A model generated the notes under the pieces. The model ran no database searches. It was not told the origin of the DNA and was given only the letters and a program-made list of their open reading frames with translations. A DNA stretch of 64,000 bases from Mustelus asterias (lineage: Eukaryota): contig NC_135812.1 in NCBI RefSeq assembly GCF_964213995.1, forward strand, positions 78,306,001 to 78,370,000, written 5' to 3'. Within the stretch, counting starts at the first letter, position 1; every line of letters starts with the position of its first letter. Position numbers and translations under genes: made by a program. Shown one piece after another: positions 1,821 to 61,381 of this stretch.

Positions 1821-3872
1821 AAGAACAAAGAACAAAGATAAAGAACAATACAGCACAGGAACAGGCCCTTCGGCCCTCCAAGCCCGCGCCGCTCCCCGGT
1901 CCAGGATTGAATCCTGAATCCAGGATCCCCGCCCAATTTTCCAGCCTATCTACATACCAATATCCTATCCACCGAGCTGTCCCTCACAGCTACGATGCTT
2001 TGTTCATCACAACCTATTAACTCACCCCCACCCCCCCATTCCAGACCATGTGATCTCCAGGGAGAGGCGAAAACCCAGAGTGAAAACCCCAGGGCCAATA
2101 TGGGGAAAATAAATCTGGGAAATTCCTCTCCGACCCCCTTAGGCGATCGAAACGAGTCCAGGAGATCACACCGGCCCTGATCGGAAAATGCTTCCCAACC
2201 CTAGTCATTTCCACTTCTGCTTTACGAACACCATCTGAATTCCCTGCCCCCGAGACAGGTTCCCAACTATCCGCAGTCTCGCTCAGTACTGGCACCAGCA
2301 AGATGATCATAGAATGAAGCCTTGAAACGGGAAACAAAGAACAATTAGCCCGCGCCGCTCCCTGGTCCAAACTAGACCACTCTTTTGTATCCCTCCATTC
2401 CCACTCCGTTCATATAGCTGTCTAGATAAGTCTTAAACGTTCCCAGTGTGTCCGCCTCCACCACCTTGCCCGGCAACACATTCCAGGCCCCCACGACCCT
2501 CTGTGTAAAATATGTCCTTCTGATATCTGTGTTAAACCTCCCCCCCTTCACCTTGAACCTATGACCCCTCGTGAACGTCACCACCGACCCGGGGAAAAGC
2601 TTCCCACCGTTCACCCTATCTATGCCTTTCATAATTTTATACACCTCTATTAAGTCTCCCCTCATCCTCCGTCTTTCCAAGGAGAACAACCCCAGTTTCC
2701 CCAATCTCTCCTCATAACCAAGCCCCTCCATACCAGGCAACATCCTGGTAAACCTCCTCTGTACTCTCTCCAAAGCCTCCACGTCCTTCTGGTAGTGTGG
2801 CGACCAGAACTGGACGCAGTATTCCAAATGCGGCCGAACCAACGTTCTATACATCTGCAACATCTGACCCCAACTTTTATACTCTATGCCCCGTCCTATA
2901 AAGGCAAGCATGCCATACGCCTTCTTCACCACCTTCTCCACCTGTGACGTCACCTTCAAAGATCTGTGGACTTGCACACCCAGGTCCCTCTGCGTCTCTA
3001 CACCCTTTATGGTTCTTCCATTTATCGTGTAGCTCCTCCCTACATTATTCCCACCAAAATGCATCACTTCGCATTTATCAGGATTGAACTCCATCTGCCA
3101 TTTCCTTGCCCAAATTTCCAGCCTATCTATATCCTTCTGTAGCCTCTGACAATGTTCCTCACTATCTGCAAGTCCTGCCAGTTTTGTGTCGTCCGCAAAC
3201 TTACTGATCACCCCAGTTACTCCTTCTTCCAGATCATTTATATAAATCACAAACAGCAGAGGTCCCAATACAGAGCCCTGCGGTACACCACTAGTCACAG
3301 GCCTCCAGCCGGAAAAAGACCCTTCCACTACCACCCTCTGTCTTCTATGACCAAGTCAGTTCTCCACCCATCTAGCCACCTCCCCCTTTATCCCATGAGA
3401 TCCAACCTTTTTCACTAGCCTACCATGAGGGACTTTGTCAAACGCTTTACTAAAGTCCATATAGACAACATCCACGGCCCTTCCTTCGTCAACCATTTTG
3501 GTCACTTCTTCAAAAAACACCACCAGGTTAGTGAGGCATGACCTCCCTCTCACAAAACCATGCTGACTATCGTTAATGAGCTTATTCCATTCTAAATGCG
3601 CATACATCCTATCTCTAAGAATCCTCTCCAACAACTTCCCCACCACGGACGTCAAGCTCACCGGCCTATAATTACCCGGGTTATCCTTCCTACCCTTCTT
3701 AAATAACGGGACCACATTGGCTATCCTCCAATCCTCTGGGACCTCACCTGCGTCCAGTGACGAGACAAAGATTTGCGTCAGAGGCCCAACGATTTCACCT
3801 CTCGTCTCCCTGAGCAGCCTTGGATAGATTCCATCAGGCCCTGGGGATTTGTCAGTCTTTATATTCTCTAAT
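1821..3872 (-). mobile_element. CR1 LINE, 5'-truncated young copy with extended 3'UTR
   Basis: ORFs 3356-3898 and 2372-3334 are in the same frame with one stop between them; RT motifs GVPQGSVLGP and KFADD; (AAGAACAA)n terminal microsatellite at ~1821-1850. Confidence 0.95.
2372..3872 (-). pseudogene. CR1 ORF2 reverse transcriptase region, one premature stop
   Basis: KSPGPDG, NYRPVSLTS, YMDFSKAFD, FADD motifs; TGA at 3356-3358. Confidence 0.9.
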
Positions 3873-3874
3873 AT

Positions 3875-59122: not shown

Positions 59123-59778
59123 ATGCAGGTGAAGGTAGTCAAGAAGGCATACGACATGCTTGCCTTCATCGGCTGGGGCACTGAGTTTAAAAATTGGCTA
59201 GTCATGTTGCAGCTTTATAGAACCTTAGTTAGGCCGCACTTGGAATATAGTGTTCAATTCTGGTCACCACACTATCAGAAGGATGTGGAGGCTTTGGCGA
59301 GGGTACAGAAAAGATTTACCAGGATGTTGCCTGGTATGGAGGGCATTAGCTATGAGGAGAGGTTGGAGAAACTTGGTTTGTTCTCACTGGAGCGACGGAG
59401 GTTGAGGGGCGACCTGATAGAAGTCTACAAGATTGAGAGGCATAGACGGAGTGGATAGTCAGAAGCTTTTTACCAGGGTGGAAGAGTGAATTATTAGAGG
59501 GCATAGGTTGAAGATGCGAGGGGCAAGGTTTAAAGGAGATGTACGAGGCAGATTTTTTACAGAGTAGTGGGTGCCTGGAACTCGTTGCCGGGGGAGGTAG
59601 TGGAAGTGGATACGGTAGTGACTTTTAATGGGCGTCTTGACAAGTACATGAATAGGATGGGAATGGAGGGATATAGTCCCCGGAAGGTTAGGAGGTTTTA
59701 GTTAAGTCGGGCAGCATGGCCGGTGCAGGCTTGGAGAGCCGAAGGGCCTGTTCCTGTGCTGTAATTTTCTTTGTTCTA
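59123..59778 (+). mobile_element. CR1 LINE 3' fragment
   Basis: ORF 59123-59458 CR1 C-terminus; short 3'UTR and tail. Confidence 0.92.
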
Positions 59779-59785
59779 TCACCGT

Positions 59786-61381
59786 AGCATAAGAACTAGG
59801 AGTAGGAGTAGGCCATCTGGCCCCTCGAGCCTGCTCCGACATTCAATAAGATCATGGCTGATCTTTTTGTGGACTCGGCTCCACTGACCCGCCCGCTCAC
59901 CATAACCCTTAATTCCTTTACTGTTCAAAAATTTATCTATCCTTGCCTTAAAAACATTCAATGAGGTAGCCTCAATTGCTTCACTGGGCAGGAAATTCCA
60001 CAGATTCACAATCCTTTGTGTGAAGAAGTTCCTCCTCAACTCAGTCCTAAATCTGCTTCCCCTTATTTTGAGGCTATGCCCCCTAGTTCTAGTTTCACTC
60101 GCCAGTGGAAACAACTTCCCTGCTTCTATCTTATCTATTCCCTTCATAATCTTATATGTTTCTATAAGATCTCCCCATATTCTTCTGAATTCCAATGAGT
60201 ATAGCCCCAGTCTACTCAGTCTCTCCTCATAAGCCAACCCTCTCAACACCGGAATCAACCTAGTGAATTTCCTCTGCACCCCCTCCAGTGCCAGTATATC
60301 CTTTCTCAAGTAAGGAGACCAAAACTGTACACAGTACTCCAGGTGTGGCCTCACCAGCACCTTGTGCAGCTGCAGCATAATCTTGCTGTTTTTAAACTCC
60401 ATCCCTTTTAGCAATGAAGGACAAAATTCCATTTGCTTTCTTAATTACCTGCTGCACCTGCAAACCAACTCCTTGAGATTCCTGCACAAAGACATCCAGG
60501 TCCCTCTGCACAGCAGCATGCTGCAATTTTTTACCATTTAAATAATAGTCCATTTTGCTGTTATTCCTACCAAAATGGATGACCTCACATTTACCAACAT
60601 TGTACTCCATCTGCCAGACCCTCACCCACTCACTTAGATTTTCTATATCCCTTTGCAGACTTTCAGCGTCCTCTGCACACTTTGCTCTTCCACCCATCTT
60701 AGTGTCATCTGCGAATTTTGACACACTACACTTGGTCCCCAAATCCAAATCATCTATGTAAATCATGAACAATTGCGGTCCCAACACTGATCCCTGAGGC
60801 ACACCACTAGTCACTGATCGCCAACCAGAAAAACACCCATTTACTCCCCCTCTTTGCTTTCTGTTTGTTAACCAATCCTCTATCCATGCCAGTACATTAC
60901 CTGTAACACTGTGCACCTTTATCTTATGTAGCAGTCTTTAGTGCGGCACCTTGTCAAATGCCTTCTGGAAATCCAGATACACTACATCCACAGGTTCCCC
61001 ATTGTCCACTGCACATGTAATGTTCTCAAAGAATGCCACCAAATTAGTCAAACATGACCTGCCCTTCATGAACCCATGCTGCGTCTTACCAATGGGACAA
61101 TTTATATCCAGATGTCTCGCTATTTCTTCTTTGATAGATTCAAGCATTTTCCCTACAGAAGTTAAGCTAACCGGCCTATAGTTACCTGCCTTTTGTCTAC
61201 CTCCTTTTTTAAACAGTGGCGTCACATTTGCTGTTTTCCAATCTGCGGGAACCACCCCAGAGTCCAGCGAATTTTGATAAATTACCACCAGTGCATTTGC
61301 TATTTCTCCCGCCATCTCTTTTAGTACCCTGGGATGCATTCCATCAGGATCAGGAGACTTGTCTACCTTTAGCCCTATTAA
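59786..61381 (-). mobile_element. CR1 LINE, 5'-truncated, frameshifted
   Basis: ORFs 60938-61384, 60392-60916 and 59779-60432 carry RT motifs. Confidence 0.93.

Follow-up and report, generated by a model that had tools for sequence, protein, structure and literature searches.

Does the 3' UTR of a shark LINE carry an RNA structure that could clamp a poly(A) tail in a triple helix? The locus that raises this question lies in a window of 64,000 nucleotides from Mustelus asterias (NC_135812.1, positions 78,306,001 to 78,370,000), by which we mean the whole stretch of DNA that was analysed, and it forms part of a 5'-truncated CR1-type retrotransposon on the minus strand (Table 1). The structure is real and unusual, it lies in an insert specific to one high-copy CR1 subfamily, and the case that it would act as such a clamp is fair, if unproven.

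Table 1. Features of the CR1 copy and of its predicted 3' UTR structure, in window positions and ordered from 5' to 3' on the sense strand.
Feature	Position	Strand	Basis or remark
CR1-type LINE copy, 5'-truncated, long-3'-UTR subfamily	1821..3873 (ends approximate)	-	Sequence and protein matches
ORF2 remnant (reverse transcriptase and C-terminus)	2372..3873	-	One internal stop near 3356; Pfam PF00078 relatives
First 23-nt direct repeat	2347..2369	-	22/23 identical to second copy; spacing 466
Subfamily-specific insert between the repeats	1904..2346	-	443 nt; 466 nt including one repeat
Microsatellite-tail remnant, sense-5' end of insert	2333..2345	-	Repeat families D3 and D4: 10/10 and 12/12 identical to the real tail
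5' flank of rival helix	2167..2179	-	Pairs with 2102-2090, 12-13 bp, covering the apical loop
Outer stem	2161..2170 (5' arm) / 2049..2058 (3' arm)	-	10 Watson-Crick pairs; extendable by 2172-2174 with 2046-2048
Side hairpin of three-way junction	2132..2148	-	One G-U pair; from folding
Double-ENE-like hairpin	2061..2131	-	Folding and descriptor search
Lower helix	2131-2125/2067-2061	-	7 bp Watson-Crick, uninterrupted up to the junction
Lower U loop	2124-2120/2073-2068	-	U tracts on both sides; 3' bulge of 2 nt
Middle helix	2119-2114/2079-2074	-	6 bp Watson-Crick
Upper U loop	2113-2106/2086-2080	-	U tracts on both sides
Top helix	2105-2101/2091-2087	-	5 bp Watson-Crick
Apical loop	2100-2092	-	Predicted fold
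G-rich tract directly downstream of the element	2024..2038	-	Could form a G-quadruplex; occupies the 3' arm when the rival fold forms
Decayed piece of own ORF2, sense-3' end of insert	1904..1957	-	Like 3080-3133; core with 23/25 identity and, at the boundary, 8 matching bases
Second 23-nt direct repeat	1881..1903	-	22/23 identical to first copy
3'-terminal stem-loop	1863..1876	-	Likely reverse-transcriptase recognition site; function by analogy with L2-clade LINEs (PMC4176376)
U-rich microsatellite tail, without poly(A)	1821..1850	-	Sequence

The first-pass annotation had placed the structure on the sense strand of a CR1 3' UTR, and the ORF2 protein matches on the minus strand bear this out. 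The best named matches free of contamination come from sharks and rays, with up to 68% identity, and those from birds and turtles lie at about 50%. A CR1-type reverse transcriptase, a terminal stem-loop and a microsatellite tail together identify the copy as a CR1 LINE, its clade being assigned by best matches. The hairpin lies in sense orientation about 200 nt upstream of the tail and about 170 nt upstream of the terminal stem-loop; by its position in the DNA, it is located where a double ENE would be expected, close to the 3' terminus of an intronless transposon RNA. Two higher ORF2 matches are labelled as bacteria and sit on short contigs that look like contamination, and several further CR1 reverse-transcriptase fragments (loci L007-L015, proteins P0001 and P0004) come from short contigs of bacterial or archaeal assemblies and apparently represent vertebrate contamination as well. 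Elsewhere in the window, a pair of CR1 copies from different families meets at the tails, leaving hardly any spacer (59128-59772, plus strand; 59780-60862, minus strand), both with short 3' UTRs. The only Rfam matches at gathering score in the window are two tRNA genes with anticodon CTG on the plus strand (26340-26411 and 27498-27569), which have equal scores, share the same sequence as far as shown, and lie 1158 nt apart.

How well does the structure stand up? All pieces quoted in the first-pass annotation are present at their positions, and its description, comprising three helices, two U-rich loops, a side hairpin and a 10-bp outer stem, was confirmed in every detail on the CR1 sense strand. 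The resulting hairpin, with its two loops bracketed by helices, has the layout of a double ENE by descriptor search and by folding, so that the proposed likeness in shape holds. G-C pairs are located directly at three of the four loop ends, and the fourth end is followed by a G-C pair after one A-U pair. For positions 2040-2180 of the minus strand, folding predicted the three-way junction at -63.3 kcal/mol (z -3.47), a value that none of 200 shuffles equalled. This low z-score needs the outer stem, overlapping 120-nt windows of the minus strand reaching only z -0.9 to -1.5. The annotation had further argued that folding on the sense strand is favoured; the sense strand of CR1 does hold the structure and is U-rich rather than A-rich, but energy alone gives no choice of strand, because the plus strand, on account of the all-Watson-Crick helices, folds nearly as well (z -3.32).

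A generic descriptor requiring three Watson-Crick helices (4 bp or more each) and two U-rich loops, written after the element had been seen, matched the window only once (128 kb, counting both strands), namely at the hairpin itself. The same descriptor matched once in 60 block shuffles (3.84 Mb) and in none of 5000 shuffles of the insert. A chance origin of the double-U-loop match is unlikely; it is not negligible, because about 0.03 matches are expected per window and the scan covers many windows. Rfam yielded no dENE match, and its three matches within 1800-2500 (E 5-8) all fell far under threshold. A simple inverted duplication was rejected as the source of the hairpin because it would put A opposite U, not U opposite U. 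An HDV-like fold was rejected as well, given that by eye about 60 nt lie between the third and the first helix, of which the one leads straight into the other in the HDV topology. We also note that seven to eight bases of the terminal stem-loop (1863-1876) are complementary by eye to the apical loop at 2092-2098 (minus strand), a pairing that could tie the element to the recognition site of the reverse transcriptase.

The structure resides in an insert, whose borders are documented by public sequencing runs: three of the four runs surveyed contain a joint from 1902 to 2370 that skips it (X1, X11, and X14), and loose ends occur at 1903 and 2347. Since the short form is without the insert, the suggestion that the module was acquired by a subfamily is well founded. 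Nine matches to the ORF2 end were found in the window, and the six other copies that reach the C-terminus are all devoid of insert sequence and have, by eye, short 3' UTRs. The make-up of the insert, with a tail remnant at its start, an ORF2 scrap at its end and a duplicated 23-mer around it, points to template jumps of the reverse transcriptase or to 3' read-through as its probable origin. Coding potential was not detected in the three of six frames covered (0 of 5 and 0 of 122 candidates for the minus-strand frame, and one spurious repeat-protein match for the plus-strand frame). Two G-rich tracts of the insert (2024-2038 and 1913-1934, minus strand) could form G-quadruplexes, and permitting them shifts the fold balance discussed below.

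Searches for distant homologues found nothing usable. Among viral contigs, there were two chance loci, no homologue among 14 candidates, and none in a further search; the four loci from metagenome contigs were all non-homologous, and none of them folds into the double-loop form. One search of genome contigs gave no match, and the nine loci recovered in another represent distant CR1 contamination with 46-55% protein identity, seven of which were examined by eye and showed no such insert. Plasmids likewise gave no match. Six motifs had no match in the CR1 consensus table of PMC13343379, whose entries cover 400 characters each and stop short of the 3' ends, which makes this result uninformative.

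Copies closer to home are plentiful. The stretch is present, in full or in part, in twenty of the 23 public runs listed, which carry 11 coded organism labels and two metagenome labels. Variants were surveyed in four of these runs (X1, X11, X14, and X15), which were compared as contigs; four others are recorded as RNA, with small shares. In X1, summed depth amounts to roughly 0.5-1.5 million across the insert versus 2.7-3.0 million for the ORF2 end, and individual divergent contigs reach about 15; these depths suggest tens of thousands of copies as a rough figure, depth being no copy number. Contig depth also cannot rank parts of the stretch, and the uneven X15 depth over the element was left out. 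The subfamily is high-copy and comprises at least two variant types, the one carried by X15 being about 4-5% apart, with its bases also present as a minority in X1. A 578-nt contig of X1 (record 2) matches positions 2044-2195 only, at about 84% identity, and could be a truncated copy of some age or a different element with only the structured part in common. The insert itself is dispensable: the short form is at least as common where the joint can be compared, because its depth there exceeds that of the long form both in X11 (153.8 versus about 70-87) and in X14 (13.3 versus 9.6), runs for which only 55 and 4 records were compared and which may be foreign-DNA traces.

Conservation of the U tracts was among the points by which the first-pass annotation would have its reading judged. 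The tracts are indeed kept or lengthened across copies. An A at 2110, which interrupts the 5' tract of the upper loop, is private to the window copy, and an uninterrupted tract of eight U accounts for 95-100% of depth in all four runs. Both indels inside 2049-2170 lengthen U tracts, and the sole substitution in a helix converts a helix-edge G into a fifth U. Conservation of the helices is a different matter. After removal of nine substitution rows outside the insert and five private to the window copy, 22 of 36 sites were counted, with one substitution among the 56 positions of the four helices versus 21 among the 387 positions elsewhere in the insert (p 0.21; a trend only), or one in the 71-nt hairpin versus 21 in the other 372 insert positions (p 0.10). 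Across the comparisons, p ranged from 0.10 to 0.23 and was not significant. Compensatory pairs were absent among the 22 variant sites, at a divergence of only about 5%, which is too low for a real test.

These data could also be accommodated by a neutral passenger, and we consider this explanation a serious one, though on balance unlikely. The insert would then be debris from template jumping or read-through, the hairpin a chance fold or the relic of a donor RNA, and both would have spread through active master copies. The mosaic of tail remnant and ORF2 scrap fits this history, as do the abundant short form, the lack of significance for helix conservation and of any covariation, the chance rate per window given above, and a fold that is not robust in its UTR context; less easily explained are 28 Watson-Crick pairs that hold four U tracts in register, with the polarity of the Evade element (see below), a hairpin that carries a single substitution against 21 in the rest of the insert, and an insert that has been kept in at least two variant types.

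What does the fold look like in the full UTR? Locally, the double-loop fold is ahead of its rival by 14-15 kcal/mol. In the whole UTR, the rival fold, built on a helix of 12-13 bp between 2179-2167 and 2090-2102, comes to within 0.1-3.3 kcal/mol in ensemble energy; for the 571-nt UTR, the Turner 2004 parameters assign the rival a share of 0.86-0.95, and it is also preferred as the chain grows. Nine runs combined three energy models with three versions of the sequence (window copy, X1 majority, and X15 majority). Unconstrained, the double-loop fold of the 571-nt UTR wins four of these nine. When the U tracts are held unpaired, it becomes dominant in all nine (0.78-0.99), at a cost of 0.1-5.7 kcal/mol, and with G-quadruplexes permitted it is in the majority in six. 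Folding prediction neither confirms nor excludes the clamp, and binding of poly(A) could decide the balance. The sequence would allow 2171-2177 to form a pseudoknot with the apical loop while every stem stays in place; this was rejected, the flank adjoining the outer stem without a linker and looking, by our estimate, too short to reach.

Two folds of such similar ensemble energy might be the very function of the locus: in a two-state RNA switch or a protein-binding structure, the flank 2167-2179 would open the hairpin, and the U loops would serve as weak points or as sites for host or ORF1 proteins. By eye, the variants at 2171 and 2178 (both of the subfamily) and at 2172 (private) all face U in the rival helix, where the pair is kept. 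However, 2172 is equally compatible with the clamp fold, the partner helices contain many G-U pairs and vary from one variant type to the other, the choice of energy model reverses the balance, and the rival helix may be due to chance, since helices of this type arose in 19-50 of 300 shuffles. Taken together, we regard a switch as improbable.

The double-ENE-type clamp, in turn, depends on a third strand. The annotation cautioned that the copy ends in a microsatellite, which is correct, and the 3' end of the element offers no substitute in cis: it contains neither AAUAAA nor AUUAAA, no A-run longer than 4 nt, and hence no A tract or poly(A) signal. A recent survey states that only Zenon copies among CR1-group elements end in a poly(A) tail (PMC13343379). 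We infer, on our own account, that CR1 RNA is polyadenylated at downstream host signals. An AAUAAA is present at window position 1692 (minus strand), in flanking DNA about 130 nt past the tail; it probably occurs there by chance, yet it is the type of host signal that read-through RNA could use.

Could the insert instead supply the third strand itself? In a self-contained triple helix, the upstream segment 2226-2207 would pair with the U tracts of the 3' side and the additional bases beside them, the 5' U tracts would lie in the major groove, and no poly(A) would be needed. We consider this highly improbable. The segment can pair with the upper loop's 3' tract, the three bases other than U among them (helix 2214-2207/2080-2087), and 2205-2217 has no variant at 6% or above, but the match is at chance level, with the duplex energy reached in 125 and such a 7-mer found in 190 of 1000 shuffles. 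Moreover, it provides only three adenosines per loop, and deletions at 2218-2226 (three of four runs) together with an extra U at 2082 disturb the register. A blunt triple helix of the MALAT1 type was rejected on related grounds, as there is no A-run above 4 nt, no tRNA-like gene between 1500 and 4000, and a cis partner at chance level only. Finally, the plus strand might hold the decayed remains of a minimal hammerhead ribozyme (2138-2158), both halves of a hammerhead-like core being present by eye with the majority base at 2140; this reading is most unlikely, given that by eye a core adenosine is absent and stem I has no way to form, that 2141 inside the core is changed in 99.6% of X15 depth, and that the window copy has no Rfam hammerhead match at E up to 10.

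We therefore return to the hairpin as a double-ENE-type clamp for a poly(A) tail added downstream, the reading we prefer and to which we assign a probability of about one half. CR1 RNA would extend past the microsatellite and receive its tail at a downstream host signal, which would be the source of the third strand. The two U-rich loops would then bind this tail in U-A-U triples and slow the deadenylation of the intronless LINE RNA. About four triples might form in the upper loop and about three in the lower, the shorter tracts setting the limit, and binding of poly(A) might tip the finely balanced fold toward the clamp. Reverse transcription would start at the internal tail beside the terminal stem-loop, a type of structure whose recognition by reverse transcriptase has been shown for L2-clade LINEs (PMC4176376), and DNA copies would be without poly(A) because of this internal start. 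The unique descriptor match, the Evade-like layout, the pure 8-U majority, and the dominance of the double-loop fold whenever the U tracts are free all favour the clamp. Weighing against it are the absence of compensatory pairs, success in only four of nine unconstrained runs, the dispensable insert, and a 3' end without a poly(A) signal, as well as 3' tracts of only four U, compared to the five triples formed by PAN (PMC7583470).

A more ambitious version of the clamp reading would be that reverse-transcriptase template jumping provided a lineage of shark LINEs with a functional double ENE, that this element clamps a poly(A) tail absent from the DNA copies, and that poly(A) flips the fold of the UTR; in this full form, we hold the claim to be doubtful. 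Non-LTR retrotransposons would thereby gain their first triple helix that clamps poly(A), and the insert-less sister form would serve as a control, which is a tentative proposition at best. If functional, the element would extend triple-helix protection to non-LTR retrotransposons and to a main group of shark repeats, CR1-group elements making up 22-34% of elasmobranch genomes (PMC13343379). It would also imply that CR1 RNA bears a functional poly(A) tail even though its DNA copies end in a microsatellite. The insert-less short form offers a natural control for relating RNA stability to LINE output, and host 3' UTRs could acquire the element from its many thousands of copies.

ENEs are reported from viruses, from MALAT1-type RNAs, and from LTR and DNA transposons of plants, fungi, a slime mould, and stickleback. 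In the open-licence literature, we found no ENE in a LINE and no structured shark CR1 UTR, and the element lists of Tycowski 2016 and Torabi 2021 may include LINEs. The novelty suggested by the first-pass annotation may persist for LINEs and has to be given up for vertebrate retroelements in general, because stickleback retroviruses are among the ENE hosts listed in PMC7583470. These retroviruses share with the CR1 element the presence of an ENE in a vertebrate retroelement; they are likened here by that listing alone, and unlike CR1 they are LTR elements with their own polyadenylation.

The closest parallel is the double ENE of Evade (Arabidopsis Copia93), which binds A20, makes its RNA more stable, increases transposition, and depends on G-C pairs next to the U loops (PMC12501189), a requirement also described in PMC7583470. 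Both elements are located in the 3' UTR of a retrotransposon, on the sense strand, and both comprise four U tracts forming two internal loops, with flanking G-C pairs. Compared by eye with the oligonucleotide of the supplement, both also have a 5' U tract followed by C residues and a 3' strand in which G residues precede the U tract and two to three extra bases; this likeness of layout is by eye only, and triplex formation has been shown for Evade only. In contrast to Evade, the present element belongs to a non-LTR CR1 of a vertebrate without an encoded poly(A) signal, its middle helix has 6 bp instead of about 11 (by eye), its longer U tract lies in the upper loop, and its hairpin is embedded in a three-way junction.

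The dENEs of the rice hAT element TWIFB1 and of other plant and fungal elements (PMC7583470, PMC13541005) also combine two U-rich loops with a short helix between them, and here, too, the upper loop looks the stronger. According to these sources, dENEs belong to plants and fungi and show a lower bulge of 3-4 nt, an A-minor stem with an interruption, an adenosine triad, and a pocket for the 3' end, whereas the CR1 element has a lower 3' bulge of 2 nt and a lower helix of seven uninterrupted pairs. Because it differs in these lower-domain features, we do not file it as a dENE member; it is at best a variant that may work like one. Single-domain ENEs, including the MALAT1 type, resemble it in that short helices rich in G-C bracket a U-rich internal loop close to the 3' terminus of the RNA. 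They differ in having one domain; the MALAT1 type in addition encodes its A-rich strand and includes a tRNA-like piece, both of which are absent here.

As a LINE, the element compares well with the stringent LINEs ZfL2 and UnaL2 (PMC4176376) and with the shark pair of HER1 LINE and HE1 SINE (PMC3747384): the present copy has the same arrangement of terminal stem-loop and microsatellite tail, here at 1821-1876. The hairpin is a separate structure, about 170 nt upstream of the stem-loop and confined to the long-UTR subfamily.
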